From positions 67,541 through 131,540 of the forward strand of contig JACPKC010000010.1 in the NCBI GenBank assembly GCA_016187225.1: a DNA stretch of 64,000 nt. The letters are read 5' to 3'. A program made the position numbers and the translations under genes. Under the pieces are notes generated by a model, which saw only the letters and a list, made by a program, of their open reading frames with translations, was not told where the DNA came from and ran no database searches. Source of the stretch: Candidatus Berkelbacteria bacterium (GTDB lineage Bacteria > Patescibacteriota > UBA1384 > JACPKC01). Shown here in pieces: positions 26,979-44,869 of the stretch (position 1 is its first letter; the number at the start of each line of letters is the position of its first letter).

Positions 26979-27010
26979 ATTCTTCCTTTCTTTGTCTTTT
27001 TCTACAAAAC

Positions 27011-27085: not shown

Positions 27086-27086
27086 T

Positions 27087-27173
27087 TGGTGCTGGGGGTA
27101 GGATTCGAACCTACGAAGGCGCTGGGCCGTCAGATTTACAGTCTGATGCGTTTGACCGCTTCGCTACCCCAGC
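27087..27173 (-). tRNA. tRNA-Tyr (anticodon GTA), class II long variable arm, CCA encoded
   Basis: Acceptor GCTGGGG/CCCCAGC, anticodon stem TCAGA/TCTGA with loop CTGTAAA, a long variable arm and T-loop GGTTCGAATCC. Confidence 0.78.
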
Positions 27174-27181
27174 TTGTTATC

Positions 27182-27256
27182 TGGAGCCACCTGTCGGATT
27201 TGAACCGACGACCTTCACTTTACAAAAGTGTTGCTCTACCGCTGAGCTAAGGTGGC
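27182..27256 (-). tRNA. tRNA-Thr (anticodon TGT), CCA encoded
   Basis: Acceptor GCCACCT/AGGTGGC, anticodon loop TTTGTAA and T-loop GGTTCAAATCC. The anticodon stem has one mismatch. Confidence 0.7.
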
Positions 27257-27328
27257 AGGCAATTCTCCAGAAAAATAATACTAGCAAGGTAGAGAGGAAT
27301 ACTCAATGATGGGGGAGCTTATTTTATA

Positions 27329-28893: not shown

Positions 28894-30546
28894 TTACTCG
28901 TTCCCGTGGAAGGGTCGGCGGATAATAAAGTATGAGACAATACCCGAAAGGATCGATGCTATCAGAAGAACAATGATTAGATTCGCTCCAGAACTTGCGA
29001 GTTTGACGGGTGCGCCTTTGCCGTCGGTTTTGGTTTGGACGACAACCGGTTCTTTTGCTGTTACTGCTTGTGTGCCAAGTATCTTCTCGCCTTGACGAAC
29101 TGTAATCGTATAATTACCGGCCGTCGTGTAGGTATGTTTCAAAGTTGTTGGGCAAGTGACGTTGCTTTGCACAATGCCGTCTCCAAAATCAACAGTTAAG
29201 TTGGTAATCGTATCGCCGGTGCAAGTAAAGGCAACTTCAAACGGCACTGTGCCTGTGGTTGGGGTCACTGCAAAGGTTCCTGTTGGGGGAGTGACGACAG
29301 TTTGAATTTGGGTTTGTGAAATTGTAAAAGAGGCGCTCTTGCTTTGAGTTTTATTTTCGGCCAAATAACTAACAGTCACAATATAGTTGCCTGAAGCGGC
29401 CGTCAGGCCGTCGGATTTTTTCTGATCCCAGGTCCAGGTCTTCGACTGGCCAATACTTAAATCGATGAGCGCTTGAGTCGAGATCGGCTCAAAGATCGCC
29501 GTGGAACCTTGCAGAATCTTAAAGGGCGCCCCATTCGGCAATTGAACCTTTGCTTCGCCAGTGTTTTTAAGCGTAAATTCCACCAGTTCAGCCGGTTTGT
29601 AGATGCTTTTCGAGGTTGTCAAGCTAACCGAAATTACTTTAGGCTTCTCAATGGGTTTGGGTTCTTCTTTGGGCTGTGTAGTCGTGACGGTTTTTGTATC
29701 GACAGTCTTACCATTGACGATCAGAGTGACTGTAAAAGTTCCCACCGAAGTATAAGTATGGGTTTCAGCGGCATTTGCATCGTCTAGGGTTGTGCCATCG
29801 CCAAAGTTCCATTTAATCTTGGGCGAGGCGCTACCGCCTTGCGGCGGTGTATAGGTGGCTGTTACCTTTAAGGGAATATTTCCCGTTGTTGGCTCGACCA
29901 CCATTGTGCCCAAATCATTTGGATCATGCAGAGCACTAAACGCAAAATCATCAATTCCAAAACCGTCAGTAGTGCCAGGAGCATTTTTCTTTAAGCGAAT
30001 CTCGGCAATGCCACTATCCGCAGTGGTGGCAGCAAGAGTGACTGGTGAGTTTACGCACTGACCACCCCCAGGAGCATTAACGGTCTTTGTAGCGATGCTC
30101 TTACCGTCAATATCAAATGCTTCAATACTTACTTCGGCATTGCCAGCATTCCCAATAGAAAAATTCATAGAATCACTGACACGCCCCTGGGTAAACTTTA
30201 TCACTAGAGGAGCGTATGAGCTTGGTTTTGCGATTAGAATATTTGGCTCCGACGGCACTTTGTAGCTTGGGCAAGCCGCACTTGCCCCAGACGCCGCAAA
30301 AAGCGTTGCACCGCTACCGCCGCCGTCCGGACTCAAAATCTCTACACCTTTGTCGGCATAGGCATCGCCAGCAATATCGCCTGAAGATTTATCATCCCAG
30401 TTGAGAGTGGTTTTTTCTGTCGCAATGTCGGCTTGTGAGAGCTGAAAAGTTTGAATGCTCCAATAGCCTAAACTCGCACTAAAAATTAGCGCGCTCACAA
30501 CCAGCGCTTGCCGCACTCTCAAGTATAACGGTGGTATTTTAGCCAC
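28894..30546 (-). CDS. Cell-surface protein with PKD domains, an N-terminal signal/anchor and a C-terminal TM anchor
   Basis: PKD signatures 'KIKWNFGDGTT...THTYTSVGTFTVTL' and 'VDFGDGIVQ...HTYTTAGNYTITV'. The C-terminal tail 'KLASSGANLIIVLLIASILSGIVSYFIIRRP' has the form L-x-S-S-G-A-N + TM + RR. Confidence 0.75.
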   Translation of the reverse strand: MAKIPPLYLRVRQALVVSALIFSASLGYWSIQTFQLSQADIATEKTTLNWDDKSSGDIAGDAYADKGVEILSPDGGGSGATLFAASGASAACPSYKVPSEPNILIAKPSSYAPLVIKFTQGRVSDSMNFSIGNAGNAEVSIEAFDIDGKSIATKTVNAPGGGQCVNSPVTLAATTADSGIAEIRLKKNAPGTTDGFGIDDFAFSALHDPNDLGTMVVEPTTGNIPLKVTATYTPPQGGSASPKIKWNFGDGTTLDDANAAETHTYTSVGTFTVTLIVNGKTVDTKTVTTTQPKEEPKPIEKPKVISVSLTTSKSIYKPAELVEFTLKNTGEAKVQLPNGAPFKILQGSTAIFEPISTQALIDLSIGQSKTWTWDQKKSDGLTAASGNYIVTVSYLAENKTQSKSASFTISQTQIQTVVTPPTGTFAVTPTTGTVPFEVAFTCTGDTITNLTVDFGDGIVQSNVTCPTTLKHTYTTAGNYTITVRQGEKILGTQAVTAKEPVVVQTKTDGKGAPVKLASSGANLIIVLLIASILSGIVSYFIIRRPFHGNE

Positions 30547-30703: not shown

Positions 30704-31105
30704 ATGAATCTATGGAGGGGTATGTCGTTTTTAGATAAACGTTCGTCAAGGCGAACCATTATTTTTTTGATCTTACTCATCCTGATTGCTGGAGCGATTC
30801 GTTATTTTACAATTAAGCCTCAAACTATTATCACGCCAACCACCGCAACCATTAATGAGCAACTGGCAGAAAAAACTGGCATAATCCGTTCATTTGATGG
30901 CGCGACCGTAAAAGTTACCGATCAGGAAGGCAATGAGCAAGCTTTTACTTTAACAGATGACGTTAGAATTCGCGTCACGAATGACGAGGGTATTTTTGTG
31001 GAAGGTAAAAAAGATGATTTTAAGGCCGGTCGCGCCATTTCCTATTATCTTTTAATCGGCATCTCGAGTCCGATGAGTAGTTCAGTTGATATCGTGAAGG
31101 AGTAG
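30704..31105 (+). CDS. Small membrane-anchored hypothetical protein (alternative start at 30722)
   Basis: It has an N-terminal TM helix 'IIFLILLILIAGAI' followed by a beta-rich domain. It lies immediately upstream of, and is presumably co-transcribed with, the large secreted protein. Confidence 0.5.
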   Translation: MNLWRGMSFLDKRSSRRTIIFLILLILIAGAIRYFTIKPQTIITPTTATINEQLAEKTGIIRSFDGATVKVTDQEGNEQAFTLTDDVRIRVTNDEGIFVEGKKDDFKAGRAISYYLLIGISSPMSSSVDIVKE

Positions 31106-31107
31106 CC

Positions 31108-33114
31108 ATGACGCATGCTCGATTTTTAGCCCTTTTTGCTTTTGTTTGGGGATTGTTATTCTTAGGGTCGGCGCAAGCCCAGGTTTATGACCACCCGGGT
31201 TTGGGTCTTAAGGTGCCAGAAACTTCATGTTATACCTACCGAACTGGTGTTAGATTTGCCATAACTAATAGTTCTTCTATACCAATAATTGAGTCGAATA
31301 ATGATTCACAGTACGACTCATTCTATGCTTCATTAACAACGCCTGGCACAGGCGCACCAGCGAATAATTCAGTTTGTAACTTTGCAGTGCCGGCTGATAC
31401 CGCCGAAGTGAAATTACTTGCCATTCAACGGCCAGGAAGTCAACAAGCAATGCAACAATGGGCAAATTGTCCTAATTTACCTCAGTGGATGCAAAACATA
31501 TTTTGCCCCGGTGGCGCTAATCCAATGACTACGCCAGCTTCTATTAATTTCACGGGCGAATATCACAACTACGAGACCGGCAATCCTATCAATCCAAACG
31601 ATTTCACTCTTTATAAGCAAACTCAATATGCGCTGAATCCGGTTGTGCTCACAAGTAATAGCAATGGTATTGTCGACTTTTCAAACATTACTCCGGTGGA
31701 TGATCAGGTCTTGCCACCTCCGAATCTACCCACAGGCCGACCGTGGCAGTATCGAAATCAAAGAATCGGTATGAACAATGGGAGCAATGGGAATATTCAA
31801 ATCGCAACGGCTGGGTCGGTTTTCTACGTTAACATTCGCAAAGGTGCGATTCAGAGTCTACCGGGAAACTTTAATTTAAATTCTCCGACAACCTCATGTT
31901 CAGGCAACTCGCCTCGAGTAACATTAAATTGGGGATCATCGCAAAGCGCAACTTCGTACGCAGTTTACCGTAATAATGTGGCGCTTAGTTTGAATGTCAC
32001 AAGCCCTTGGACCGACAACTCCGTTGCGTCTGGCTCGCATACCTATAAAATTCGTGCTCAAAATTCAGTTGGCTATACCGAGAGCAACTCTCAATTAGTC
32101 AATGTGCCAACCTGCCAGCCTCAACCAGTATTATCCAGTGTTGCGATTAATCCACCTTTTGCCACAGTAATTACAAATAATATTGTGCAGTTTAGCGCCA
32201 ATTGCCGCGATCAGAATGGCGCCAACTTTAATGGCGCATCCGTGCTTTGGGGCGCGCAAAGAGGATCAATCAATCAATCAGGCCTTTATACTGCTCCGGC
32301 GACTGCGGGTTCCGATACCGTGACTGCCCAGTGCGCGGCTGTGGGCCAGAATCCAGTTACTGGCGCCGCGCCTGTGACAGTTAAAGGGGGGCAAATAACT
32401 GGGGATATCTTTGCCGAGGGCGATGTCAGCAATCTTAATATCGATCCGGATTCAGTTGTCTCATCGAATGGAAGCGTCACTGTGACTGGCACGAATAACA
32501 CAATTCAGCAATACGACAGCAATGCTTCTCAACAAGCAGATACTGTTATTCAAAAACTCATCAATGAGAAGGCCAATGTCCTTGGCGCTGGTAGTTCGGC
32601 AAGTTGCACTAATAGCAATAGCGGTAATTACACGCTCAATAGTGTCTTCAATCTAAATCCCAAACAAGCGGGCAATCCCAGTGACTCTGAAGAAAATGCC
32701 GCTAACCCAGAGGGCGGAGTTTGGTTTGTGCGTCACAATTTAATCATGCGCGGCGCTACCTTTAAGGGTAAAGGCACAATCATTGTCTGCGGAGATGTGA
32801 ATTTAATTTCACCTTCGAATGAGAAAACTATTGCTTACCAAGACGGTGGCACCGGCGATGATCTGGTTGGATTGATTAGCCTGAACGGCAATATCGATTT
32901 AAGAAATTATGATAATCTAGTCGGCGCTTATTACGCGCCAAATGGCACGATTGATGTTGGGCAGGGTAGTTCCTCGCTTGGGCTTTATATTGGGGAAAAT
33001 ATTACCCTTCAAGCCGCTGATGTGACTGTTGATTACGATGGTCGCATTACTAACGGTCCACCCCCAGGCTTCAGCAAATCCTTCGTACCCTCGCTTTCTG
33101 AGGTCGCGCCGTAA
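31108..33114 (+). CDS. Large secreted protein with an FN3-like domain, a Big_2 (bacterial Ig-like) domain and a C-terminal beta-helix-like region; candidate adhesin upstream of the pilus locus
   Basis: Signal peptide 'LALFAFVWGLLFLGSAQAQV'. FN3-like 'RVTLNWGSSQSATSYAVYRNN...HTYKIRAQNSVGY'. Big_2-like 'VAINPPFATVITNNIVQFSANCRDQNG...YTAPATAGSDTVTAQ'. Confidence 0.65.
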   Translation: MTHARFLALFAFVWGLLFLGSAQAQVYDHPGLGLKVPETSCYTYRTGVRFAITNSSSIPIIESNNDSQYDSFYASLTTPGTGAPANNSVCNFAVPADTAEVKLLAIQRPGSQQAMQQWANCPNLPQWMQNIFCPGGANPMTTPASINFTGEYHNYETGNPINPNDFTLYKQTQYALNPVVLTSNSNGIVDFSNITPVDDQVLPPPNLPTGRPWQYRNQRIGMNNGSNGNIQIATAGSVFYVNIRKGAIQSLPGNFNLNSPTTSCSGNSPRVTLNWGSSQSATSYAVYRNNVALSLNVTSPWTDNSVASGSHTYKIRAQNSVGYTESNSQLVNVPTCQPQPVLSSVAINPPFATVITNNIVQFSANCRDQNGANFNGASVLWGAQRGSINQSGLYTAPATAGSDTVTAQCAAVGQNPVTGAAPVTVKGGQITGDIFAEGDVSNLNIDPDSVVSSNGSVTVTGTNNTIQQYDSNASQQADTVIQKLINEKANVLGAGSSASCTNSNSGNYTLNSVFNLNPKQAGNPSDSEENAANPEGGVWFVRHNLIMRGATFKGKGTIIVCGDVNLISPSNEKTIAYQDGGTGDDLVGLISLNGNIDLRNYDNLVGAYYAPNGTIDVGQGSSSLGLYIGENITLQAADVTVDYDGRITNGPPPGFSKSFVPSLSEVAP

Positions 33115-33146
33115 TCCAATGTGCTATACTTTAAGCATACTTTCTA

Positions 33147-33809
33147 TTGAGGAGGGGCGTGTTAAGTTTCCAAAATGATGGCATTCAACCGGCTAAGACG
33201 CCGGCAAATGGAGCGGCAGGCCCAGCGCCTGTTCAACCAGCCAAATCTGCTCTTGACCCAAGTGTGGTAGCAATCAACCCGGAATCAAACGATTCGCTAA
33301 TCGCAATTTTTGCGGGTTTAAGTGTTGCTCTTAGTCTCCTCGGCGGTGTTGCGGCCTCATTTTTGCGGGCCCAAGCGAAAGGAGAAGCTGAAGCCTCAAG
33401 TCAAAAAGTGACGAGCCTTCAGCAGGAATTCGCCTCGGGCGATCTTAAAACTATGCTCGATAAGGCTGGTTTAGTTGAAAAACAGCTCGAGGTCACAAAA
33501 GAATTCTCTGCCGCCCTGCCTTGGCCAAAGCTCTTAAAAGCTCTAGCCGACAAAGTCCCTGGATCGGTTAAATTTACGGCCAATTCTTTTGAAACTGACA
33601 AGTCATTAAGAATTGACGGCTCGGCAAATAATTACGCCGAGGTAGCGCGACTCATGACCGCCATCGAGTCGACGGATGAGTTTTCGGAGATTGCGCTGAC
33701 GAGCGCAACTCTTTCTGAATCTGTCGACGGTAATTCGATTACTTTTTCAATCACGGCCAAATATGCGGCGCCAGTCGCTGGAGGGGATGATGGCGGAAAT
33801 ACAAACTGA
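33147..33809 (+). CDS. pilN: Type IV pilus assembly protein PilN-like
   Basis: It has a single TM helix, a coiled coil and the C-terminal PilN-like block 'LRIDGSANNYAEVARLMTAIESTDEFSEIAL'. It is the first gene of the pilus assembly operon. Confidence 0.65.
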   Translation: MRRGVLSFQNDGIQPAKTPANGAAGPAPVQPAKSALDPSVVAINPESNDSLIAIFAGLSVALSLLGGVAASFLRAQAKGEAEASSQKVTSLQQEFASGDLKTMLDKAGLVEKQLEVTKEFSAALPWPKLLKALADKVPGSVKFTANSFETDKSLRIDGSANNYAEVARLMTAIESTDEFSEIALTSATLSESVDGNSITFSITAKYAAPVAGGDDGGNTN

Positions 33810-34389
33810 ATCAACTAAACATAACACTTTGTTGTGGCTAATTTTAGGCGTGATTGGTTCAGCCGCGGCATTCTATTTATATACCTTGCCTCAAATTCGC
33901 GAGCTCAAGCTTTTGCGCACGCAGTCGGCGACGCTTGAGGCTGATCTTTCAAGCTTAAACGAAAAGAAAACCACTGTTGTTAAATTAAACGACGATCTTA
34001 AAAGGAGCACTGCGCTGACTGACAAACTTGCTCTGGCTGTGCCAGAGGATGAGGCTATCGATGAGCTCATTACTTCACTTGAAAAGATTGTTGAAAAAGC
34101 GGGCATTACTTTGTTGTCGGTTCAGCCGGCAAGCAATGTTGAAACAGGCAAGACAACCGCTATGCTTTCAACCCGAGGCTCATATTCCGGCACAACACTA
34201 TTTCTTGAATTTTTAGAAAAGAACCTTCGTCCGATTGGCGTCAATGATCTTGCACTCACAGCGACGTCGGATATTCAAGGCGCGTCGCTGATTAGCGCCT
34301 CATTCGAGATTACTCCTGCCCAGATTGCCAAGGCCGCACCGGCGGCAGAGACGTCCGCTCAAGACACAGAGACAAAAGGAGCCCAATGA
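33787..34389 (+). CDS. pilO: Type IV pilus assembly protein PilO-like
   Basis: It has a TM helix 'LLWLILGVIGSAAAFYLY', a coiled coil and a C-terminal PilO-like fold. The start is taken at an ATG after the GGAGGGG SD; the ORF-track start at 33763 overlaps pilN. Confidence 0.65.
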   Translation: MMAEIQTESTKHNTLLWLILGVIGSAAAFYLYTLPQIRELKLLRTQSATLEADLSSLNEKKTTVVKLNDDLKRSTALTDKLALAVPEDEAIDELITSLEKIVEKAGITLLSVQPASNVETGKTTAMLSTRGSYSGTTLFLEFLEKNLRPIGVNDLALTATSDIQGASLISASFEITPAQIAKAAPAAETSAQDTETKGAQ

Positions 34390-34637
34390 ATCGGCCCATA
34401 GTAATTGGCATCGGTTTAGGAGTGAATCTCATTCTTGCGGGTGTGACACTTTGGCTGATTATGCGCGCCGTGCCCATGACGTCGGATATTGAAAGCGCCC
34501 GGACAAAAGTTGAACCTGCGCCAAAATTTACGATCAAAGATATCGAGGCGCTTAAATTGGATGAAAAAACCCTGAATGGTGACTTGCCGATCTCGATTGA
34601 TGGAGTTGGGCGTGTCGATCCATACGCGGGGATTTAG
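34386..34637 (+). CDS. Small single-TM protein (83 aa) between pilO and pilB; possible minor pilus-assembly component
   Basis: There is an ATGA overlap with pilO. The TM helix is 'IVIGIGLGVNLILAGVTLWLI'. There is no family match. Confidence 0.45.
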   Translation: MNRPIVIGIGLGVNLILAGVTLWLIMRAVPMTSDIESARTKVEPAPKFTIKDIEALKLDEKTLNGDLPISIDGVGRVDPYAGI

Positions 34638-34642
34638 CAATT

Positions 34643-37153
34643 ATGGTGAACCCTCAAGCCCAAAATAATTTGGAGATTCTCAAAAAAACGGCCGCTGAAC
34701 TCGGCCTTGAGCTTGTCGCACTCACCCAGGACACTCCTGAACAATCCGCCCTGGCTCTGGTGCCCGAAGCATTGGCGCGTCAATATCAGTTACTGCCTTT
34801 AACTCTTAAAGAGAAATCACTCACTCTCGTCTTAACTGATCCAGCGCTCTTGACAAAACCAGCGCCCAAATTTCTGCAGGAACTCAAGCAAAACGGGTAT
34901 CATCTGCGTTTGCAACTCACATCCAGCGAGGATTTTCAAACTGCTTTGGGAGCTTATCGACCACAAGTCAATGGCCAGAGGCCACTATCCAGAGTGAATA
35001 ACGCTCAAAGTCAGAACATGCAAGCGAAAACAACTGTGCAGGCAGGTCCTCAACCAGTAACTAGTATACCCCCAGTCGCTTCACCCGCACTTTCGGTGCC
35101 AGCCTCGGTGCATTCGGCGCAAGTCGAGTTAGTTATATTGAAAAGCAGAGAAGTGCCTTTGAACGTTTTAAACAAATTCCCCCAGGACGTGGCGAAAAAG
35201 TATCAGATGGTTGTGTTTGAACTTTCAGCCGACGGTCAGGAGGCATCCGTTGCCGCCCTTAAACCTAACGACCGTCGAATTCGAGAAATTCTCAAGTTTA
35301 TTGAGGCGCGAAACAAGGTTCGAATTCATTTATTCTCGGCGAGTAAAGAGGATATTGAAGGAGTATTGAAGCAATATGACACAGAGCACAGAGAAGACAA
35401 AAAACCAGCCCAAGCTCCAACGCCAATTTCTTCGATCTCTACTCCGCCTGCGCAGAAGTCAGCCATGGTTTCGGCGCCACTAAAGCCGAGTTTTGCGCCG
35501 ACAATTCTCACTCCTTCAGTGAAACCTAATTCTGTGTCGCGCATTCCACCCAAACCCGTTTCAGCGCCGCTCCCAGTTGTCCCCAAAAGACCTATCTTGT
35601 CGCCTTTGCCGACGCCGCTGGCGGCGCGGCCAGTTACGCCCATTGGGCCCAAAATCGGCGGCCTTACACCAGCTCAACCAATTGCGCCCGAGACGCCAAA
35701 TAGTTTGGGCACGACCGATCTTAAATCATACCAAGAAGCAATCATTCGTAATTCTGCCACTCTTCGAGATCCAAGTACGCCGGTTCCAACGGTCGAAGTT
35801 GGTGATTTACAACTCCCAACCAATCAACTTGGCGTGGGCGAGTTGCCGGAAGGACAAGCGCCGATTATGATAACCAATATCGGCGCAGAAGATAAAAATC
35901 TCGACATAGTTCTCGGCACGACCGTTGAAACTTCTGAACAACTTGAGCAAATTCTTAAATCTGGCATGGTGCCAAAAATTGTCGCCGCGATCGTGTTTTA
36001 CGCCACTGCCGTGGCCGCATCCGATATTCACATGGAGGCTGGTGAGAAAGAGGTTCGGATTCGCTTTCGTGTTGATGGCACTTTACAGGAAATTATCAAA
36101 TTGCCGGTTCAACTTTTGGCGCCGATTGTGTCGCGCATCAAAATTTTAGCCAAACTCAAAATCGATGAATCGCGCATCCCGCAAGATGGCCGTTTCGGGG
36201 TGATTGTGCAAAAGCGGGAAATTGATCTGCGAGTTTCAACCCTGCCAACAGTTTTCGGCGAAAAAGTGGTTATGCGGATTCTCGATAAAGAAAAAAGTTT
36301 GAAAAAACTCACTGAATTGGGTATTCAGGGTACTAATCTCGCTCGAATCCAGTCAGCAATCAAAGACCCCTTTGGTATCATTTTAGTGACTGGTCCGACC
36401 GGTTCAGGCAAGACCACAACACTTTACGCGATGTTAACTGAACTCAATACCGCAAGTGTCAACATTGTTACTCTCGAAGACCCGGTCGAGTATCAGCTTG
36501 ATGGCATCAATCAGACCCAGGTCAAGCCAAAAATCGGCTTTGGTTTTGCCGATGGTTTACGTTCAATTCTGCGGCAAGACCCGAACATTATTATGGTTGG
36601 CGAGATTCGCGATGGAGAGACTGCCGGCCTGGCAACTCAAGCCGCGTTGACCGGTCACCTGGTGCTTTCAACTTTGCATACCAACGACTCATCTGGAGCG
36701 CTTCCCCGGATGATCGATATGCACGTTGAACCATTCCTCCTAGCTTCTTCGGTGAATATCGTGATTGCCCAGCGTTTGATTCGTCGCTTGTGCTCAAAGT
36801 GTCGCCAGCCAGCCTCAATTCCGGCCGAAACTCTCACTCGCATTCAGCAGGAGCTCGCCTCGGCATTCGCTCCTGAACTTAAATCAGCGGCGAGTAAGCA
36901 ACTTTCTTTCTTCGGCCCAAATCAAAAGGGCTGCAATGTCTGTCATAATGGTTATAAGGGTCGGGTCGGGATTTACGAAGTTCTAATTACCAGTCCGGCT
37001 ATCGCCGATCTCGTTCTTGCTAAATCCGCCTCGTCCAAAATTGCGGCTAAAGCTCACGAAGAGGGGATGATCACACTTAGAGAAGACGGCATCCTTAAAG
37101 CCATGCAAGGTGAAACATCGCTTGACGAAGTCATTCAAGCCACCAGCGAATAG
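34643..37153 (+). CDS. pilB: Type IV pilus assembly ATPase PilB (GspE family) with a duplicated N-terminal T2SSE_N-like domain and a Pro-rich linker
   Basis: Walker A 'VTGPTGSGKTTTLYAML', Asp box 'IMVGEIRD', His box 'GHLVLSTLHTND', and the tetracysteine motif 'CSKCRQ...CNVC'. Two N-terminal domains are separated by an approximately 150-aa Pro/Ala/Ser-rich segment. Confidence 0.9.
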   Translation: MVNPQAQNNLEILKKTAAELGLELVALTQDTPEQSALALVPEALARQYQLLPLTLKEKSLTLVLTDPALLTKPAPKFLQELKQNGYHLRLQLTSSEDFQTALGAYRPQVNGQRPLSRVNNAQSQNMQAKTTVQAGPQPVTSIPPVASPALSVPASVHSAQVELVILKSREVPLNVLNKFPQDVAKKYQMVVFELSADGQEASVAALKPNDRRIREILKFIEARNKVRIHLFSASKEDIEGVLKQYDTEHREDKKPAQAPTPISSISTPPAQKSAMVSAPLKPSFAPTILTPSVKPNSVSRIPPKPVSAPLPVVPKRPILSPLPTPLAARPVTPIGPKIGGLTPAQPIAPETPNSLGTTDLKSYQEAIIRNSATLRDPSTPVPTVEVGDLQLPTNQLGVGELPEGQAPIMITNIGAEDKNLDIVLGTTVETSEQLEQILKSGMVPKIVAAIVFYATAVAASDIHMEAGEKEVRIRFRVDGTLQEIIKLPVQLLAPIVSRIKILAKLKIDESRIPQDGRFGVIVQKREIDLRVSTLPTVFGEKVVMRILDKEKSLKKLTELGIQGTNLARIQSAIKDPFGIILVTGPTGSGKTTTLYAMLTELNTASVNIVTLEDPVEYQLDGINQTQVKPKIGFGFADGLRSILRQDPNIIMVGEIRDGETAGLATQAALTGHLVLSTLHTNDSSGALPRMIDMHVEPFLLASSVNIVIAQRLIRRLCSKCRQPASIPAETLTRIQQELASAFAPELKSAASKQLSFFGPNQKGCNVCHNGYKGRVGIYEVLITSPAIADLVLAKSASSKIAAKAHEEGMITLREDGILKAMQGETSLDEVIQATSE

Positions 37154-37161
37154 GAGTTCCG

Positions 37162-38268
37162 ATGGTTGAGACGCAATCCACGCAAGCCATGTTGGGCGCC
37201 AACGATCGCTCACTTTCACCACATTTAAGCGAGATGCTTAAATTCGCAATTGAACATAGCGCTTCTGACTTACACATTCAAATCGGCGTGCCGCCAGTTA
37301 TCCGCATCGACGGCAAACTTCGCTCGGTGCCAGATCAGCCCCTTTATACTCAAGAATCGGCGGCCGCCGACGTGCTTTCGAGTCTAGGGACCGTGCAACG
37401 CGAACGCTTTGCGACCGAACGCGAACTCGACTTTTCTTTTACCTTTGAAACGATGCGCTTACGTTGCAATGTTTACTATGAAAAAGGCAACATCGTCGGC
37501 GCTTACCGATTAATTCCAACTCAAATTCGAACTGTTGAACAACTTGGCTTGCCGCCGGTTTTGGTTCAGTTAACCGAACACAAACAAGGACTCGTGATTA
37601 TTACTGGCCCAACTGGCCATGGCAAATCCACCACGCTGGCGGCTTTAATCGACCATATTAATCACAATCGCTCCGAGCACATTATTACAATTGAGGATCC
37701 AATCGAGTACATTTTCGCAAATCAGAAAAGCGTCATCTCCCAACGTGAAGTGGGCTTCGATACCAAAACTTTCGCCAATGCCTTGCGCGCTTCCATGCGC
37801 CAAGACCCGAATGTAATTTTAGTCGGTGAGATGCGCGATTTGGAAACGATGGCTTCAGCGTTAACGCTCGCTGAAACTGGTCATTTAGTTTTCACAACTT
37901 TGCACACCAACTCCTCGGCCGAAACCGCTGATCGCATTATCGATGTCTTTCCGCCGCATCAACAACAGCAGATTCGCTCTCAACTTGCCTCGGTTTTATT
38001 GGGCGTCATTTCTCAACGTCTCCTGCCTAAAATCAATGGCGGGCGAGTTGCGGCGGCAGAAATTATGCTGGGCACAACCGCCGTTCGAAATACCATTCGC
38101 GAGGGCAAGACTCATCAGCTCGACAATATTATTCTCACCGGTTCAGCCGAGGGTATGATTAATCTCGATGCTGTGCTTGCCGGTCTCGTTAATAAGGGGG
38201 AAGTTACAATTGACGATGCGATCAACTGGGCGCGCGATTCTAAACAACTCAAGATTAATATCTTTTAG
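37162..38268 (+). CDS. pilT: Twitching motility (pilus retraction) ATPase PilT
   Basis: 'ITGPTGHGKSTTLAALIDHIN', 'ILVGEMRD', 'GHLVFTTLHTNS' and the AIRNLIRE-like block 'AVRNTIREGK' are present. Confidence 0.9.
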   Translation: MVETQSTQAMLGANDRSLSPHLSEMLKFAIEHSASDLHIQIGVPPVIRIDGKLRSVPDQPLYTQESAAADVLSSLGTVQRERFATERELDFSFTFETMRLRCNVYYEKGNIVGAYRLIPTQIRTVEQLGLPPVLVQLTEHKQGLVIITGPTGHGKSTTLAALIDHINHNRSEHIITIEDPIEYIFANQKSVISQREVGFDTKTFANALRASMRQDPNVILVGEMRDLETMASALTLAETGHLVFTTLHTNSSAETADRIIDVFPPHQQQQIRSQLASVLLGVISQRLLPKINGGRVAAAEIMLGTTAVRNTIREGKTHQLDNIILTGSAEGMINLDAVLAGLVNKGEVTIDDAINWARDSKQLKINIF

Positions 38269-38270
38269 TT

Positions 38271-39353
38271 ATGCCCGAGCCCGTAAAAAAACCCGCCCTC
38301 AAGTTCGAGATTGATATTCCTTTTTTGAATAATGTTTCAGTGAGAGAGAAGTCTTTTTTAGCGCGCCAGCTGGCCACGATGCTTGCAAGCGGTTTGGCGC
38401 TTAATCGTGCCGTGGCTATTCTCGTAGCTCAAACTCAAAACAAAACCCTTAAAACGGCGCTTCAGGGTATTGAAACAGATCTCGAGGGCGGCTTGCCGTT
38501 TTCGGGCGCAATTGCCAAACATCCAAAGATTTTTGACCGAGTTTTCGTGAACGTGGTAATTTCGGGCGAAAGCGTGGGGCGCTTGGCGGATGTGCTCAAT
38601 CAACTTGCCGACCAGCTTGAAAAAGATTCCGGCTTCATGAATCGAGTTAAAGGCGCTCTGGCTTATCCAGCCTTTGTCTTTGTGGCGATGATCGTTGTCG
38701 GCGCAATTACGATGGTTTACATCATTCCGCAACTTCAAAGTGTCTTCGAGGAAGCCGGCGCCGAATTGCCATTTTTAACTCGCATGATTATCGCTATAAG
38801 TCATTTTCTACAAAACTATTGGTGGTTAATTATTATTTTTGTCGTCGTAGGTTTAGCTGTTGGTCGCACATATTTTCGTTCCAAAGCGGGCGAGCGTCTC
38901 TGGGGGCTGATTCAACTTCACCTTCCAGGGCATCTTGGCTACGATATCTATATGGCCAGGTTTAATCGCACCCTGGGAATGCTCGTGCAAGCCGGCACAC
39001 CAATTATCGAAGCAATCAGTGTCACGGCGTCGGTGATGGATAATCTGCTTTATCGCGAGTATTTGGCGGCGGCGGCCGATCAAGTTAAACGCGGCGTCCC
39101 GCTTTCCGTGCCTCTTCAAAAAACCGCGCTTTTTCCGCTCATTGTTGGCCAGATGATCGCAGTTGGCGAGCAAACAGGTCGCCTCGATCAGATTCTCTTA
39201 AAACTCGCCGAGTATTATGAAGAGGAAGCAGATAGTAAAATCAAGCAATTAAGCAGTTTAATTGAGCCGATTGTAATCGTTTTGATCGGTGTTGGAGTGG
39301 GGATTCTTGTCTATGCGATCCTGGTGCCAATCTATAATATCGCACAGTTCTAA
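38271..39353 (+). CDS. pilC: Type IV pilus platform protein PilC (GspF family)
   Basis: It has two T2SSF repeats and about three TM segments. A GspF-type block 'AYPAFVFVAMIVV' is present. Confidence 0.88.
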   Translation: MPEPVKKPALKFEIDIPFLNNVSVREKSFLARQLATMLASGLALNRAVAILVAQTQNKTLKTALQGIETDLEGGLPFSGAIAKHPKIFDRVFVNVVISGESVGRLADVLNQLADQLEKDSGFMNRVKGALAYPAFVFVAMIVVGAITMVYIIPQLQSVFEEAGAELPFLTRMIIAISHFLQNYWWLIIIFVVVGLAVGRTYFRSKAGERLWGLIQLHLPGHLGYDIYMARFNRTLGMLVQAGTPIIEAISVTASVMDNLLYREYLAAAADQVKRGVPLSVPLQKTALFPLIVGQMIAVGEQTGRLDQILLKLAEYYEEEADSKIKQLSSLIEPIVIVLIGVGVGILVYAILVPIYNIAQF

Positions 39354-39870
39354 GGGTTTTACGCTTTTAGAGCTCATGATCGTTATCACGATCGGCGGTA
39401 TTTTAATTAGTGTTGTCGGCATGAATTTTTCGTCAACGCGAAGGCAGGCGCGGGACGCGGTGCGGAAAAGTGACGTTGAGGCGATTCAAACGGCGCTCGA
39501 GCTTTATTACAACGCTCACAATGAGTTTCCCAATTTCAATACCTGGGCAACGAGCAATAACTCGATCGGATCTGGCAATTGGGCCTCGCTTCAGCAGGAT
39601 TTAAGCCCATATTTAAGTTCAATGCCGACCGATCCGGTGAATGCGAGTGGAACTACGCCTGAAAATGGCGGGCTGGCTTACGGCTATCTATCCACAGCCG
39701 CCTATGGTTGCACTGGACAATGGTATGTTCTTGTTTATACACTTGAAGTTGAGAACGATCCCGCTTTAACTCGAAGCCCAGGGATTTCTACTTGCAACAG
39801 TCAAACGCTTAACGATAGCAACCTTGCAAGCGCTCCTTGGACGTTTTGGGTCGGTGTCTCTGGGAGTTAA
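39313..39870 (+). CDS. Type IV pilin-like protein (prepilin with an N-terminal methylation motif)
   Basis: Class III signal 'KG/FTLLELMIVITIGGIL'. The start is ambiguous (GTG 39289 or ATG 39313) because the leader overlaps the pilC 3' end. Confidence 0.75.
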   Translation: MRSWCQSIISHSSKGFTLLELMIVITIGGILISVVGMNFSSTRRQARDAVRKSDVEAIQTALELYYNAHNEFPNFNTWATSNNSIGSGNWASLQQDLSPYLSSMPTDPVNASGTTPENGGLAYGYLSTAAYGCTGQWYVLVYTLEVENDPALTRSPGISTCNSQTLNDSNLASAPWTFWVGVSGS

Positions 39871-39970
39871 AATATGCTAGAGTAATCAAAAGGTATTTAT
39901 CGATCGAAGTTGAGAACGTCTTGGCTCTATCGGACAAAAATTATCACTCACAATAATAAAAGGAGGCAGA

Positions 39971-40465
39971 ATGAATTTACATAGAAGTAAACAACGAGGT
40001 TTCACGCTCCTCGAGCTCCTCGTTGTGGTTGCGATTATCGCGATTTTAGCCGCGGTGATTGTGGCAAACTTAAACTCGGCGCGAAGTAAGGCAAATGATG
40101 CCAAGGTGAAGCAGGATCTCAATGGCGTCGATCAGGCACTTGCAGTTGCGACCGCTGACCCATCGGTTCTTGGATCGGCGCCTTTAAACGCCTTAAATAA
40201 TGGCGGCGGCGTTTTAGTTGATATCGACACCGAAACGGCGCTAACAGTTAATGGTTATCTTAAGACTTTTCCAATTCCACCATCGGGTATAACGCAATAT
40301 AACTATCGTAGCAACTATTCCAATGGGATTTTCGGCTATGTGTTGTGGGGTACACTCTCAACAAAAACTGGCGCAAACAATGACTGCTGGGTTATAAACA
40401 CCGGTAACGCTTTTCAGTCGAACGGCTGTCTTGCCGCCGATACAACTGGTGTAACACTTCCGTAA
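39971..40465 (+). CDS. pilA: Type IV pilin, probable major pilin PilA
   Basis: Strong SD AAAGGAGG. Leader 'MNLHRSKQRG' is followed by 'FTLLELLVVVAIIAILAAV', which is the canonical prepilin peptidase site. Confidence 0.85.
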   Translation: MNLHRSKQRGFTLLELLVVVAIIAILAAVIVANLNSARSKANDAKVKQDLNGVDQALAVATADPSVLGSAPLNALNNGGGVLVDIDTETALTVNGYLKTFPIPPSGITQYNYRSNYSNGIFGYVLWGTLSTKTGANNDCWVINTGNAFQSNGCLAADTTGVTLP

Positions 40466-40478
40466 TTTAAGAATTTTC

Positions 40479-41273
40479 ATGTCGGAGTTTGAGCAAGCGG
40501 TCAATTTTTGGCCGCTTGCGGCGATTTTTGGTCTGTTTTGGGGTTCATTCTTGAATGTTCTTGCTTTGCGCTGGGGTTCAAAGTATCGAGGCTTGACACT
40601 CGCAGAACGGAGTCACTGCCCAAAGTGCCAAAAAATTTTAAATTGGCACGAGCTTCTGCCCCTAATAAGTCTTATACTTTTACACGGCCGTTGCCGAGGC
40701 TGTCGAAAAAAAATTGACTTGCGCTATCCAGGCGTTGAAATTTTAACCGCAGTTTTTCTTGGGGGAATAGTTTTTAAGTATGGGTTGTCAGCTCAAGCCT
40801 TAACTCTGTCAGTTGCCGGGAGTTTGCTTTTGATCGCGGCGCTAGTTGATTTTGAAACTCAAATTTTACCCGATTCTTTAGTTGCAAGCGCTTTCGTTTT
40901 AACTCTCCTTGTAACACTTTTACTGGGTCAATCAGCGCTTGTGAATCTAGCGTTTCCAGTTTCCAGTTGGTGGCGGGGCGCCTTAACCGGCGGGTTGATC
41001 ATCGGCGCGATTTTTCTTCTTACGCGTGGGAAGGGGATTGGTTTTGGCGATGTTAAATTAGCGACCGTGCTCGGATCAGTAGTCGGTATGAGCGGCGCCC
41101 TACTTATGTTGTGGAGCGCGTTTATTTTGGGCAGTCTTGTGGGCGGAACACTTCTACTTCGTCGCCGCGCAACCTTAAAGACCGCTCTTCCATTCGGCCC
41201 CTTTTTATTTGCTGGCTGGCTGATCGCGCTTTTTTGGGGTCGTGACATCATTGCATGGTATACTCAATTATAA
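40479..41273 (+). CDS. pilD: Prepilin peptidase PilD (A24 family)
   Basis: N-terminal zinc-binding 'CPKCQ...CRGC', a polytopic membrane domain and the catalytic Asp motif 'GFGDVKL'. Confidence 0.85.
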   Translation: MSEFEQAVNFWPLAAIFGLFWGSFLNVLALRWGSKYRGLTLAERSHCPKCQKILNWHELLPLISLILLHGRCRGCRKKIDLRYPGVEILTAVFLGGIVFKYGLSAQALTLSVAGSLLLIAALVDFETQILPDSLVASAFVLTLLVTLLLGQSALVNLAFPVSSWWRGALTGGLIIGAIFLLTRGKGIGFGDVKLATVLGSVVGMSGALLMLWSAFILGSLVGGTLLLRRRATLKTALPFGPFLFAGWLIALFWGRDIIAWYTQL

Positions 41274-41292
41274 TATTGACGGGTAATAAGTT

Positions 41293-41796
41293 ATGCGTAA
41301 AAACGATACTAATCAGGGTTTCTCGCTTATCGAACTCTTAATCGTCATGGTTATTATTGGTATGTTGGCAACCGTCGTTACTATTTCGTCTTCAGCCTCA
41401 AGGGCGCAGGCGCGCGATAGTCGCCGCAAATCCGATGTCCAGACCGTGGCCGCGGCGCTTGAAACTTATCGAGTTGAGAACAAAGTTTACCCAACCGAGA
41501 ATAACTTCTCCGGAAGCTGGGACGACCTCAAAGTCGTGCTTTTCCCCGATTTTATTTCCGAATGGCCCGACGATCCACAAGGCAATGCCAGTCAATATGG
41601 CGAGGGGTATGTGTACGCAACCGACTCGCTTGGTTCGGCTTACGCGCTTGACGTCACCTTAGAAGGGGATGAAGACGTAACCTTGCAACCCAACGAAATC
41701 GACGAAACTTTGACAGTTAATCCAGATGAAGATTTTTTCGTCACAGGTATCTATAGTTATGGCGGCGACACCCATTACCGCTTCAGCGGCCGGTAA
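41293..41796 (+). CDS. Type IV minor pilin/pseudopilin-like protein
   Basis: Leader 'MRKNDTNQG/FSLIELLIVMVIIGMLA' is a prepilin motif. Confidence 0.78.
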   Translation: MRKNDTNQGFSLIELLIVMVIIGMLATVVTISSSASRAQARDSRRKSDVQTVAAALETYRVENKVYPTENNFSGSWDDLKVVLFPDFISEWPDDPQGNASQYGEGYVYATDSLGSAYALDVTLEGDEDVTLQPNEIDETLTVNPDEDFFVTGIYSYGGDTHYRFSGR

Positions 41797-42283
41797 GGGC
41801 TTTACCCTTATTGAACTTATCATTTCGATGGCGATCATCGTGATGCTTTTAGGTTTGGGAATTCCAGCTTTTCGACGCTATGGTTTACGAGCTGATCTAG
41901 AAAATGCAGGTGTGACTTTAGCCACTAATATCTTTCGGGCGCGCACTTTAAGTTTGGCGCCCGAAGCGAGCAAAGAAGGTAATATCACGGCCTACGGCGT
42001 TGCTTTTGATGCTCTGAATAATAAATACCGCATTGCGCGCTTTAGTGGCGAGGGGGCAAACGTTCAAGAAGAAAGCGTCGTCGATCAATTTCTTTTACCC
42101 AATCAGGTCGCTTTTTCGGTTGCGCCTGCCGAGCCGATTCTTTTTCCGCTTGCTCTTCAAGGCGAGCCGGCCCAGCTGCCCGCGGATAGCAACCTCGCTC
42201 TTTTACACACTCGACTCGCCCAAAACAACTCGCGGACTATAAACATCAATCAAGTTACCGGTCAAGTCAGCTTAGAGGAGTAA
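41759..42283 (+). CDS. Type IV minor pilin-like protein
   Basis: Prepilin motif 'AGKG/FTLIELIISMAIIVMLLGL'. The start is taken at the internal ATG; the ORF-track start at 41726 overlaps the upstream pilin. Confidence 0.7.
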   Translation: MAATPITASAAGKGFTLIELIISMAIIVMLLGLGIPAFRRYGLRADLENAGVTLATNIFRARTLSLAPEASKEGNITAYGVAFDALNNKYRIARFSGEGANVQEESVVDQFLLPNQVAFSVAPAEPILFPLALQGEPAQLPADSNLALLHTRLAQNNSRTININQVTGQVSLEE

Positions 42284-42284
42284 A

Positions 42285-42905
42285 GTGAAGACAGCTTTCA
42301 ACGCGCCACCGGCGACAAGAGGTTTCGGCTTGCTTGAGGTTGTGCTCGCAACCGGTATTTTGGCGCTCGTTGTTACTGGCGCAGTGGCGCTTTTGAATGG
42401 CGCCTTGCGCCGAGCGAATTTGTCAGCCGAGCGAACGACGGCTATGAACCTTGCGCAAGAGGGGATTGAGCTTGTTCGAGCCGCTCGCGATATCACCTTC
42501 ATTGACGATGAGAATAATGCTTGGGATGCAAATTTACCGATCTCAACCGATGAAGGCACTTTGCAAGCGGCTGGTAGCGATCCTTATGGAATTGCTTATG
42601 TGCTTGTACCGGGAAGCGGTGGTCTTTATGCATGGCAACTTAGAAAAAATTACCCGCCCACAGCATTCATTGGCGGTGGGATCGCAAATGGCATCCAAAC
42701 CATCCCACTCAATGATATCGATTACCAGCGTGAGGTTTATGTAACCGTGCCATCACTTGGTTACGTTACGCAGGCTGGCTTGCCAAATGGCGTCACCGAT
42801 GACGATATTATCCGCAAGATTAAGGTAATTGTGCGATGGGGAGATAGCGCCGGGCAGGCGGTTGAGTCGATTACTTATCTCACTAATTGGCGAACGGGAA
42901 CGTGA
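42285..42905 (+). CDS. Type IV minor pilin-like protein (PilV/FimT-like)
   Basis: Prepilin-like N-terminus 'RG/FGLLEVVLATGILALVV'. Confidence 0.65.
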   Translation: MKTAFNAPPATRGFGLLEVVLATGILALVVTGAVALLNGALRRANLSAERTTAMNLAQEGIELVRAARDITFIDDENNAWDANLPISTDEGTLQAAGSDPYGIAYVLVPGSGGLYAWQLRKNYPPTAFIGGGIANGIQTIPLNDIDYQREVYVTVPSLGYVTQAGLPNGVTDDDIIRKIKVIVRWGDSAGQAVESITYLTNWRTGT

Positions 42906-43492
42906 TGACCAAAGGCTTCACTCTTATAGAGGTGCTTATTGCTTCATCGATTTTTGTTGGAGTGCTAATGATCGGCACAATCTCTTTCAGTTCAACAAGC
43001 ACAAAAAGTGAAGAGGTGAAGCACATTCAAACCACAGCGCAAACCGCGAGATTGATTGCCGAGGCGATTTCACGCGATGTGCGAGCCTCTACCGGTGAGA
43101 AAGCGCCCGATGGCACATATCTGCAGTATCCTTTTACGCTTTTTAGTAACAATCAAAAAGTAACCTCTCTCGTATTGGGCGTAGCGAGTGGCGACGCACT
43201 CGAAATTGCGCGCTACGATCCGACTACGCAAGCTATCGTTACAAAGAAATATGCCGTAACTCTAAATGGCAATGGCGAAGAAATTTTTTCGGTCAGTAAA
43301 AATGGGGGAGTGGCCGAATCGCTTCTTCCAACTGGTTACTCAATTCAAGGCGTCTATTTTTGGGCTGTAACGCATGAACTTGCGGCCGATCGTTTTTATC
43401 CTTTTGTGAAATTCAGTTTTGCTGTTGTTCATAATGAGTCGGGCACTTCACAAAGAATCAGCTCGGCCGTTGCCACGCGGGAACTGTTCTAA
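42905..43492 (+). CDS. Type IV minor pilin-like protein (PilW-like)
   Basis: Prepilin motif 'MTKG/FTLIEVLIASSIFVGVL'. The ATG at 42905 gives a short leader; the ORF-track TTG at 42887 is an alternative. Confidence 0.72.
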   Translation: MTKGFTLIEVLIASSIFVGVLMIGTISFSSTSTKSEEVKHIQTTAQTARLIAEAISRDVRASTGEKAPDGTYLQYPFTLFSNNQKVTSLVLGVASGDALEIARYDPTTQAIVTKKYAVTLNGNGEEIFSVSKNGGVAESLLPTGYSIQGVYFWAVTHELAADRFYPFVKFSFAVVHNESGTSQRISSAVATRELF

Positions 43493-43644
43493 ACACAGTT
43501 GATATCCGCGTATCATTACGAGGAGCCAAGGGCGACGGAGTAATCTGGTAAAGATTACCGCATAGTCGAAAAGTCTCGACAAATTTGAGCAGAAACATGT
43601 ACACTCGGCGGAGTTTTGTAATCTTTCCAAGGAGGTAAGTTGTT

Positions 43645-44778
43645 GTGCGTATTTTCTTCATTCTGGCTTTCAGCCTCCTCTCGGCCGTGCCTACCTGGGC
43701 GAAGCTAAGCGAGCAGGAGGTCCGAGCTGTTCTCATCGGAGTGGAAGAAGACAATTTAAACGATCGCTATAGCGAGTCGTGGTGGACACGAGAATTTCGT
43801 CTTTTCAGTGGCACGAACGACGAGTGGTCGCTTGATTCTTACACTCGACAACATGTGCAAAAAGAAATCAGTCGACTCCGGAGTGGCAAAACTCCACTCC
43901 GTATCTGGGAGTATGATCCAGGTCATGCGATTGTAGTCATTTACCATCTCTGGGATAAAGATCAATCCAGGCTTGTAACGAGTTCAATCGCGCACCTTGT
44001 GCGAGAGGAGGGTCGCTGGAAACAGTCGGCAAGTTCCGGAATCTGGTTGAATTATAGTGTCCTCGGTTTCCCGCGAGCAACTCCAGCTTATCTTGATCAG
44101 GATTTCGCAAAGTCTAAAAGGAACTTCTTGAACAAGAAACCCAAGAAGACTTTGGTGACCGCGGCTCAAAAAGCGCTTAAAACACTTATCCCAAAGTACG
44201 ATCTGGGGGGAACATTGTCTTCGAGTAAGTGTCTGCGTGTCATACTTTGCGAGGGTTGGAACGAGCAACGTAAAAAGTCAACCATCAAACTTTTAATTGA
44301 GCTCAATCAACCACTTACTTCAAACACATACTCAAAATACGTCTTGTTCGAGGTTGGATTGGACGACCTGGCAACAGGGAAAACGCTTGTCGTGCGTCCA
44401 CTCGATGAAAATGGAATTTTTGATTTCCCAAAGGTAGCGATTTCATACGAACTAGCCCCTCAAGTTGCGTTTGGGCCGACACGCCAGGCGCTTGCCGAAG
44501 CGAAAGGCGCGTATAAACAGGGGTGTGTTTTGTTTGCATCCTGGTGCGCCCTGAACCGACTCGATCGCGTTCAGACCTACTTTTCTTCTGACAAGCAGGG
44601 GAAAGTATGGTGGCAGGCGGCTTTCCCATTCGCCAAACTAACGTGGCAGAATGTCGAGCTCGTTGAGTTTAGCTCCGCCAAGGTCAAGCTCATCTTGCCC
44701 ACCCGGCACGGAAAAACCGCGGTTGTCTTAGTGAAAGAAGGTAATCGTTGGCGCGCCCAGTCGGTCGACAATGAGTAG
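43645..44778 (+). CDS. Secreted hypothetical protein (377 aa) downstream of the pilin genes
   Basis: GTG start with an AGGAGG SD. Signal peptide 'FFILAFSLLSAVPTWA'. No family assignment. Confidence 0.6.
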   Translation: MRIFFILAFSLLSAVPTWAKLSEQEVRAVLIGVEEDNLNDRYSESWWTREFRLFSGTNDEWSLDSYTRQHVQKEISRLRSGKTPLRIWEYDPGHAIVVIYHLWDKDQSRLVTSSIAHLVREEGRWKQSASSGIWLNYSVLGFPRATPAYLDQDFAKSKRNFLNKKPKKTLVTAAQKALKTLIPKYDLGGTLSSSKCLRVILCEGWNEQRKKSTIKLLIELNQPLTSNTYSKYVLFEVGLDDLATGKTLVVRPLDENGIFDFPKVAISYELAPQVAFGPTRQALAEAKGAYKQGCVLFASWCALNRLDRVQTYFSSDKQGKVWWQAAFPFAKLTWQNVELVEFSSAKVKLILPTRHGKTAVVLVKEGNRWRAQSVDNE

Positions 44779-44809: not shown

Positions 44810-44834
44810 AGGCCCCACAAGGGCCTTTTCTTTT
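44810..44834 (+). terminator. Rho-independent terminator after the pilus-locus secreted protein
   Basis: Hairpin AGGCCC-CACAA-GGGCCT followed by TTTTCTTTT. Confidence 0.6.
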
Positions 44835-44869
44835 ACAGCTCACCCGAGCTTGTTATACTGCCACCATCT

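Follow-up and report, generated by a model that had tools for sequence, protein, structure and literature searches.

A probable PilM-less, secretin-less type IVa-like pilus operon in Candidatus Berkelbacteria, with a secreted protein encoded upstream of pilN

Pili are thought to be central to the attachment of episymbionts to their hosts and to DNA uptake. In bacteria of the candidate phyla radiation (CPR), they are built without PilQ, and a function in DNA uptake has been proposed for them (PMC6744442). TM7x carries four pilus loci, one of which, T4P-1, drives twitching, and its pili mediate host binding (PMC12206443). In Thermus, PilM couples PilF/PilB to PilN-PilO, and PilF is stimulated through PilM (PMC6325625). 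PilM, PilN and PilO are regarded as the assembly sub-complex that defines type IVa pili (T4aP). Here we analysed a stretch of 64,000 nucleotides (nt) from a Candidatus Berkelbacteria metagenome-assembled genome (contig JACPKC010000010.1, positions 67,541 to 131,540; hereafter 'the window'), in which a sequence-only reading had noticed a type IV pilus locus. We consider it probable that the genes from ~30.7 to 43.5 kb form one operon for a retractile, T4aP-like pilus without a secretin, that this operon belongs to a PilM-less lineage, and that a protein of a family which we call Family B is encoded at its upstream end.

We employed Pfam and NCBIfam scans of the listed open reading frames (ORFs) to assign gene families. 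The gene order proposed from the sequence is real, since Pfam supports pilN, pilO, pilB, pilT, pilC and pilD. All sizeable ORFs of the window were scanned with Pfam, and precomputed Pfam assignments were used for the genes 10 kb to either side. Neither PilM nor a secretin (PF00263) nor PilP (PF04351) was matched within this span of ~84 kb, which is part of a contig of 320,597 nt. A CPR PilM profile made from five Patescibacteria PilM proteins and read down to E≤1 found nothing in the window and its flanks; among the first 80 related loci, by comparison, the same profile detects PilM in 47. Searching the span with the five PilM proteins by tblastn gave fragments at chance level only, and a pilM pseudogene remnant was rejected on this basis. 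As further PilM candidates, an ORF of 340 amino acids (aa; 25646–26668, minus strand) and the other family-less ORFs showed no actin-fold signal and no profile match. The reported absence of pilM, pilQ and pilP from the window is thus confirmed, and neither pilM nor pilQ lies within 10 kb on either side, where their discovery had been named as a finding that would overturn the earlier reading. The lack of a secretin is expected because a CPR cell has no outer membrane; the locus is a T4aP-like operon that fits the 'monoderm-style' label first given to it, and secretin-less CPR pilus loci are already known.

To place the locus among its relatives, we assembled a comparison set of ~170 related loci (L numbers below). 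PilB was chosen as the query because PilN, at 16–22% identity, was too divergent and was dropped; the PilB query yielded 80 loci from GTDB species genomes and 80 from metagenomes. In relatives that have PilM (PF11104, E down to 1.7e-50), its gene is the one immediately preceding pilN. PilN beside PilM starts with M-x-(x)-I-N-L-L-(P/K/Q) in 54 of the 55 proteins. This INLL(P) peptide is reportedly the site at which PilN binds PilM in canonical systems. It is missing in 13 of the 14 PilN proteins that have no PilM in their locus, the exception (L105) being clipped by a contig end. We refer to 13 loci as the PilM-less set (the window, L003, L006, L007, L010, L018, L087, L088, L090, L091, L093, L167 and L168). 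Window PilN (HYW32_03280, 33159–33809, ORF start 33147; PF05137, E=1.6e-10, above the gathering score) has a Pro/Ala-rich cytoplasmic tail of ~50 aa without an N-terminal INLL(P) motif. It is followed by PilO (33790–34389, ORF start 33763; PF04350, E=3.9e-6, 27.5 bits against a cut-off of 22). When the PilB cores were placed on a neighbour-joining tree, all PilM-less loci except the window fell into one clade with zero PilM-positive members, and the named members of this clade are mostly Berkelbacteria. Thus, the PilM-less state is a lineage character, which may go back to one loss or to a small number of them and not to 13 separate events. Both the loss of the PilN motif alongside pilM and the sharing of this gene layout by a group of related lineages had escaped the sequence-only reading. 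Since the docking peptide of PilN is lost and pilM is missing near the locus, we infer a true absence of PilM and not a relocation.

The PilM-less loci share a second feature directly upstream of pilN. In the window this position is taken by a secreted 668-aa protein (HYW32_03275, 31108–33114, plus strand, as are all genes of the locus). It begins with a Sec-type signal peptide (…GSAQAQ|VYD) without a G|F-x-x-x-E motif, followed by an orphan N-terminal region (25–251), an Ig-like (immunoglobulin-like) region (252–427) and a conserved C-terminal helix plus predicted β-solenoid (~470–665). The FN3 and Big_2 domains claimed for this protein are found by Pfam in neither case, but the idea survives in part: AlphaFold models residues 252–427 as two Ig-like domains with a predicted local distance difference test (pLDDT) score of 80–96, Foldseek relates them to Big_2 of LigA and FN3-like modules of CbhA, and partial sequence matches agree. 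No full-length homologue was detected; only the Ig-like middle matches Big_2/I-set proteins. Residues 472–660 are modelled as the helix and β-solenoid (pLDDT 75–91). The predicted solenoid resembles ComZ and the tapirins, and among pilus-related structures ComZ matches Family B most closely. As the β-solenoid fold is generic, this likeness is a lead and not proof, and a role of the 668-aa protein as tip factor or adhesin, modelled on that fold, stays conjectural.

The ~190-aa C-terminal domain defines Family B. It matches the protein directly upstream of pilN in L018, L006, L087, L090 and L091, and a profile of the domain retrieved 15 unannotated proteins, four of which (P0065, P0059, P0064 and P0057) have their genes immediately ahead of a pilN that lacks the motif, again with pilM missing. 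In L167, L168 and L170, pilO, the small ORF and pilB also follow downstream of the domain, while L171 ends within pilN. Among 1.84 billion cluster representatives the domain has 858 relatives, 139 of them at E≤1e-30. It is always C-terminal, in proteins of 230–1431 aa (mostly ~370 aa), and belongs to no Pfam family. In many members an 'LPEPMVGQT' motif closely follows the signal peptide; the window protein has no clear copy of it.

Could the two proteins encoded at 30722–33114 be ordinary surface proteins, mere neighbours without a function in the pilus? The smaller protein is an orphan, as is most of the 668-aa protein; Ig-like and β-solenoid modules are common in surface proteins (S-layer matches included), and a distant subgroup with the Family B domain (P0068, L169) is not encoded beside pilus genes. 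However, in 10 of 10 close contexts, all PilM-less, the domain is encoded immediately upstream of pilN and on the same strand. The gap to window pilN is just 44 nt from the annotated start (33159) or 32 nt from the ORF start (33147). In addition, among the ~170 loci the domain occurs in PilM-less ones alone, and none of the PilM-containing loci has one. We therefore regard the neighbour explanation as quite unlikely. Judged by the position of its C-terminal domain upstream of pilN in 10 independent loci, the 668-aa protein is to be counted with the pilus genes.

The earlier suggestion that both upstream proteins are pilus-associated accordingly holds for the 668-aa protein and is unsupported for the smaller one, which is a protein with an N-terminal membrane anchor (HYW32_03270, 30722–31105; 127 aa as annotated, 133 aa if read from the ORF opening at 30704). 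Its gene stops 2 nt ahead of the 668-aa gene. It has no Pfam or NCBIfam family and no detectable homologue, and it forms a singleton cluster. In L006, L018, L087, L090, L091 and L171, and weakly in L168, Family B is preceded by proteins of 488–814 aa with an N-terminal membrane anchor (Family A). That the window protein is a truncated Family A member was rejected because the Family A profile stayed silent even at E≤10. What the two share is only the slot, a membrane-anchored protein ahead of a secreted one.

The sequence-only reading had also counted two large secreted Ig proteins. The 668-aa protein is one; the other candidate (28894–30546) lies outside the 30704–44778 span of that reading, on the minus strand. 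This surface protein of 550 aa has two PKD domains, begins with a signal or anchor and carries a transmembrane anchor at its C-terminus. Its gene is transcribed divergently from the pilus operon; the protein was not found in the related loci and is probably the second one that was meant.

Between pilO and pilB, the window encodes an 83-aa single-pass membrane protein without a Pfam match (HYW32_03290, 34386–34637). It comprises a transmembrane anchor, no lipobox and ~55 extracytoplasmic residues that end in G-R-V-D-P-Y, while the C-terminal motif of its family is G-[RK]-x-[DN]-P-[FY], typically G-R-x-N-P-F. Members of the family are encoded either after pilO or in the space between pilO and pilB; they occur both where PilM is present and where it is lacking, and also in Saccharibacteria. 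We found such an ORF in at least 38 of 69 pilN loci, versus a background of 49 in 8370 small ORFs, which are mostly these same genes. The database relatives are all 'hypothetical' and lack a Pfam family. By conserved position and motif, the 83-aa protein is assigned to a widespread unannotated CPR family that accompanies pilN-pilO.

This ORF had been proposed as a minimal stand-in for PilP. No PilP homology (PF04351) was detected for 15 family members at E≤10, NCBIfam found none either, and comparison with the PDB gave only matches driven by the transmembrane helix. The protein is also too short for the secretin-binding β-sandwich domain of PilP. An identity with PilP was consequently rejected for want of Pfam, NCBIfam or PDB support, and the stand-in idea survives as a functional analogy alone. 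As the family occurs with and without PilM, the ORF does not compensate for a missing component here. In TM7x, the unnamed gene TM7x_00430 lies between pilO1 (TM7x_00425) and pilB1 (TM7x_00435) and is skipped in published tables; matched by position alone, it appears to be a member of this family.

The assembly ATPase PilB (836 aa, 34643–37153; T2SSE, E=4.5e-132) contains two MshEN stretches. A first MshEN domain (20–107) is separated by a ~55-aa spacer from a second one (~161–245), and a linker of ~165 aa (~255–420) then leads to the ATPase core. This linker is disordered and contains 19% proline (256–420). The duplicated N-terminal domain had been recognized correctly from the sequence, but the Pro-rich spacer follows both MshEN copies and does not split them. 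In NCBIfam, type IV-A PilB (TIGR02538) was the best match with 521 bits, below the equivalog cut-off of 675, versus 247 bits for ComGA. A second MshEN domain and a long low-complexity linker are common to L003, L006, L087, L091 and L168; L090 has the long linker, and its second MshEN domain is not evident. In relatives the linker is Lys/Glu-rich, so proline richness was rejected as a conserved feature and only length and disorder are conserved. We also rejected the PilB extension as a general PilM substitute, since PilB is of ordinary length in L018 and L167, two loci without PilM.

Several observations weigh against the reading of the locus as a PilM-less T4aP-like operon with an upstream Family B component. 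The two loci with a normal-length PilB, L018 and L167, are PilM-less as well. The β-solenoid fold is generic, and its first model was of moderate confidence (pLDDT 62.8). Window PilB branches alone, near the main PilM-less clade but not within it. Weakly conserved patterns such as E-P-x-L-E-I-N-T persist in the PilN tails of PilM-less loci, and one PilN subgroup shows F-T-D-H-P-S-F-N-F; a new membrane-proximal cytoplasmic motif, approximately [EK]-F-[TS]-[DE]-[HR]-[PG]-[SG]-F-N-[FY], is found in PilN of L168 (3116–3784), L170 (851–1474), L171 (3044–3508) and L087 (5055–5777). That these patterns are kept suggests that PilM-less PilN tails still bind some partner, possibly a divergent PilM. Such a PilM could be encoded elsewhere in the genome, beyond the ~84 kb that were searched; the contig alone measures at least 320 kb. 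Finally, PilM, PilN and PilO are each essential for piliation in Streptococcus sanguinis, the one monoderm in which this was tested (PMC6916266).

Taken further, these points describe a canonical CPR pilus in which PilM, encoded elsewhere, still couples PilB to PilN-PilO and only the gene order has changed. Such a relocation would agree with the limited search span, with the residues kept in PilM-less PilN tails, with the occurrence of several pilus loci in one CPR genome (four in TM7x, PMC12206443) and with the essentiality of PilM in the systems studied so far (PMC6916266, PMC6325625). However, nearly all PilM (54 of 55) adjoin an INLL(P)-type PilN, and the motif is missing in 13 of 13 PilM-less loci. 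In L006, L018, L087 and L090, flanks of up to 10 kb per side contained no PilM, nor did the span covered around the window, and tblastn found no pseudogene left behind. On balance we hold a relocated PilM to be somewhat unlikely.

The remaining genes of the operon are those of a complete fibre and its retraction motor. PilT (368 aa, 37162–38268; T2SSE, E=6.6e-45) directly follows pilB, and PilT orthologues occupy the same position in 41 of 80 loci. The platform protein PilC (38271–39353; T2SSF in two stretches, E=1.1e-55) is followed by prepilin 1 (185 aa, 39313–39870; SKG|FTLLE; N_methyl, E=1.9e-8) and prepilin 2 (164 aa, 39971–40465; QRG|FTLLE; N_methyl, E=1.6e-10). Next come the prepilin peptidase PilD (40479–41273; A24_N_bact, E=4.4e-25; Peptidase_A24, E=1.8e-13) and four minor pilins: minor pilin 3 (41293–41796; NQG|FSLIE; N_methyl and a weak T2SSG match), minor pilin 4 (41759–42283; GKG|FTLIE; N_methyl and TIGR02532), minor pilin 5 (42285–42905; TRG|FGLLE; weakly PilV/GspI/GspJ-like) and minor pilin 6 (42905–43492; TKG|FTLIE; weakly GspJ/PilV-like). 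The earlier count of six pilin-like genes is borne out, as exactly six ORFs of the window, all in this locus, combine N_methyl with the prepilin motif G|F-x-L-[IL]-E. The core order pilB-pilT-pilC-pilin-pilD-minor pilins is widespread in Patescibacteria. From 30722 to 39870, the intergenic distances range from -41 to +44 nt; larger gaps precede prepilin 2 (100 nt) and the gene of a 377-aa protein (152 nt). NCBI entries identical to the window proteins run from HYW32_03270 to HYW32_03345 (MBI2590008–MBI2590023, from the Candidatus Berkelbacteria genome), and two Logan assemblies carry the same sequence.

Prepilin 2 is likely the major pilin, being of the type most often seen after pilC in relatives. 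On its 3' side we found a strong hairpin (40493–40519; a 12-bp stem with seven G-C pairs, then a T-run) that overlaps the first codons of pilD. By acting as an attenuator, this hairpin could shift the balance of transcripts towards the major pilin and away from the machinery.

The secreted 377-aa protein (HYW32_03345, 43645–44778) had been taken to close the operon. Its gene adjoins the pilus genes but is not co-conserved with them: the protein has no homologue in the ~170 loci, forms a singleton cluster and has no Pfam, NCBIfam or PDB relative, and it was therefore rejected as a pilus component. A promoter-like site lies in the 152-nt gap upstream of the gene. Behind it, a terminator-like hairpin (44810–44826) and a further promoter-like site (44832–44859) separate the gene row from RNase H. 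In relatives, the slot between minor pilins and RNase H contains tryptophanyl-tRNA synthetase (TrpRS; L006, L087 and L090) or is empty (L018). The order minor pilins-(TrpRS)-RNase H is kept in L003, L006, L018, L087 and L090 (44870–48171 in the window), and isoleucyl-tRNA synthetase (IleRS) follows RNase H wherever a locus reaches far enough (the window, L006 and L087). By this gene order, the 377-aa protein is a lineage-specific insertion that separates the minor pilins from a conserved block of RNase H and IleRS, and no conserved end of the operon. Because the block is conserved, the pilus operon sits in a stable chromosomal context.

One might ask whether the operon is a decaying remnant, non-functional after the loss of PilM, as its PilN, PilO and pilins are strongly diverged. 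We consider this highly improbable. All 15 genes are intact and free of frameshifts, catalytic motifs and the cleavage motif of every pilin are kept, and the same layout is held in at least 10 divergent genomes. Since the genes are intact and the layout recurs, the locus appears to be under selection.

A different proposal concerns function: the locus might mainly encode a short DNA-uptake (competence) pilus and not an adhesive or motility pilus. DprA is encoded 6 kb downstream (50943–52037), with RecR, TopA and RadA nearby; DNA uptake has been proposed for CPR pili (PMC6744442), and of the pilus-related structures the competence pilin ComZ comes nearest to Family B. However, neither ComEA nor ComEC was found in the window by Pfam, the presence of PilT and PilN-PilO sets the locus apart from ComG systems, and the homologous T4P-1 of TM7x drives twitching while its pili bind the host (PMC12206443). 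The two roles are moreover not mutually exclusive. A mainly competence-related pilus is possible, if doubtful.

From the established functions of the protein families, the machine encoded by the T4aP-like operon would most likely work in the standard way, as follows. PilD would cleave the six prepilins, PilB would power assembly via the PilC platform and PilT would power retraction, with PilN and PilO forming a membrane-spanning stator and the four downstream minor pilins priming the fibre. Without the cytoplasmic ring of PilM, PilB may dock directly on PilC or on the re-modelled PilN tail. The 83-aa protein may be an extracytoplasmic partner of PilN-PilO, possibly a stabilising one, and the β-solenoid protein may be an extracellular accessory of the pilus that serves as adhesin or tip factor or aids in crossing the envelope. 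Only tentatively do we join these ideas into one picture: a PilM-free T4aP in which the PilN tail, or PilC alone, recruits PilB directly, Family B as a new extracellular component, and the 83-aa family as a universal fourth subunit of PilN-PilO in CPR bacteria, functionally analogous to PilP in cells that have no secretin. In that picture, the second GSPII domain on its flexible linker would help to recruit PilB in most members.

If true, a lineage that keeps PilN, PilO, PilB, PilT and PilC after losing both PilM and its docking peptide would show how an ATPase can be coupled without PilM. Two unannotated families travel with CPR pilus genes, and the smaller one apparently occurs in TM7x, which is cultivated and genetically tractable. 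In the literature searched, we found no account of the PilM-less layout with a re-modelled PilN, of Family B or of the small conserved family. Searches for Berkelbacteria together with pilM gave only a general CPR protein-family paper and its preprint, and searches for INLLP together with PilN/PilM gave none.

The rest of the window encodes cell-wall synthesis (mur genes, penicillin-binding proteins, FtsW/RodA), RecJ, SodA, RadA, tRNA synthetases, NusG, DprA and TopA. Four tRNA genes (Trp, Thr, Tyr and Thr) lie at 26706–27256 on the minus strand; both Logan assemblies break inside this cluster at ~27228, and the plus-strand ORF 26917–27309 is a spurious reading across the tRNAs. Three large ORFs matched no family at Pfam E≤1e-5 (20517–22826, minus strand, 769 aa; 56345–59434, 1029 aa; 59541–60455, 304 aa). 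In some related loci, small genes resembling selfish elements sit between pilus genes (L090: 7467–7763 and 13892–14269; L167: 7673–8041; L088: 14824–15417). By eye, from their N-termini, one is GIY-YIG-like and one resembles an IS200-type transposase; the L167 gene has a Pfam match to 23S_rRNA_IVP, and the product of L090: 13892–14269 looks similar by eye. In L082 (16185–20984, ~8–13 kb beyond the right end of the window), neighbouring 799- and 934-aa proteins show DUF8128 and TrwB/T4SS-DNA_transf matches and resemble coupling proteins; this pair lies on the same contig as DprA, RecR and TopA.

Compared with described systems, the locus differs from the ComG pseudopilus (ComGA, ComGB, ComGC-GG) in having PilT, PilN and PilO. 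Its 83-aa protein is, like the diderm lipoprotein PilP (PF04351) that links PilN-PilO to the secretin, small, extracytoplasmic and encoded next to pilO; unlike PilP, it is anchored by a transmembrane helix and has no lipobox. The predicted β-solenoid of the 668-aa protein is likened to ComZ, a competence pilin of Thermus thermophilus (PDB 6qvi), and to the tapirins, which are adhesins from Caldicellulosiruptor pilus loci (6n2b, 4wa0), although the protein lacks the prepilin leader of ComZ. With PilF of T. thermophilus (PMC6325625), window PilB has in common more than one N-terminal GSPII/MshEN domain before the ATPase core. It has two GSPII domains where PilF has three, then the ~165-aa low-complexity linker, and PilM is absent near its locus.

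Firmicutes T4aP (Streptococcus sanguinis, Clostridium; PMC6916266) are likewise encoded in a compact single operon with PilN, PilO and PilT and without secretin or PilP. They need PilM, however, which in C. difficile is fused to PilN, while the window locus has none. T4P-1 of TM7x is arranged as pilM1-N1-O1-[TM7x_00430]-pilB1-pilT-pilC1-pilA1-pilD-minor pilins (PMC12206443, PMC6744442). In contrast to T4P-1, the window locus lacks pilM, its PilN is without the INLL(P) motif, a further GSPII domain and a long linker extend its PilB, and upstream it has in addition a membrane-anchored protein paired with a secreted, predicted β-solenoid protein. Both loci do without PilQ and PilP, and they share the same core gene order, the small ORF between pilO and pilB, and PilT.

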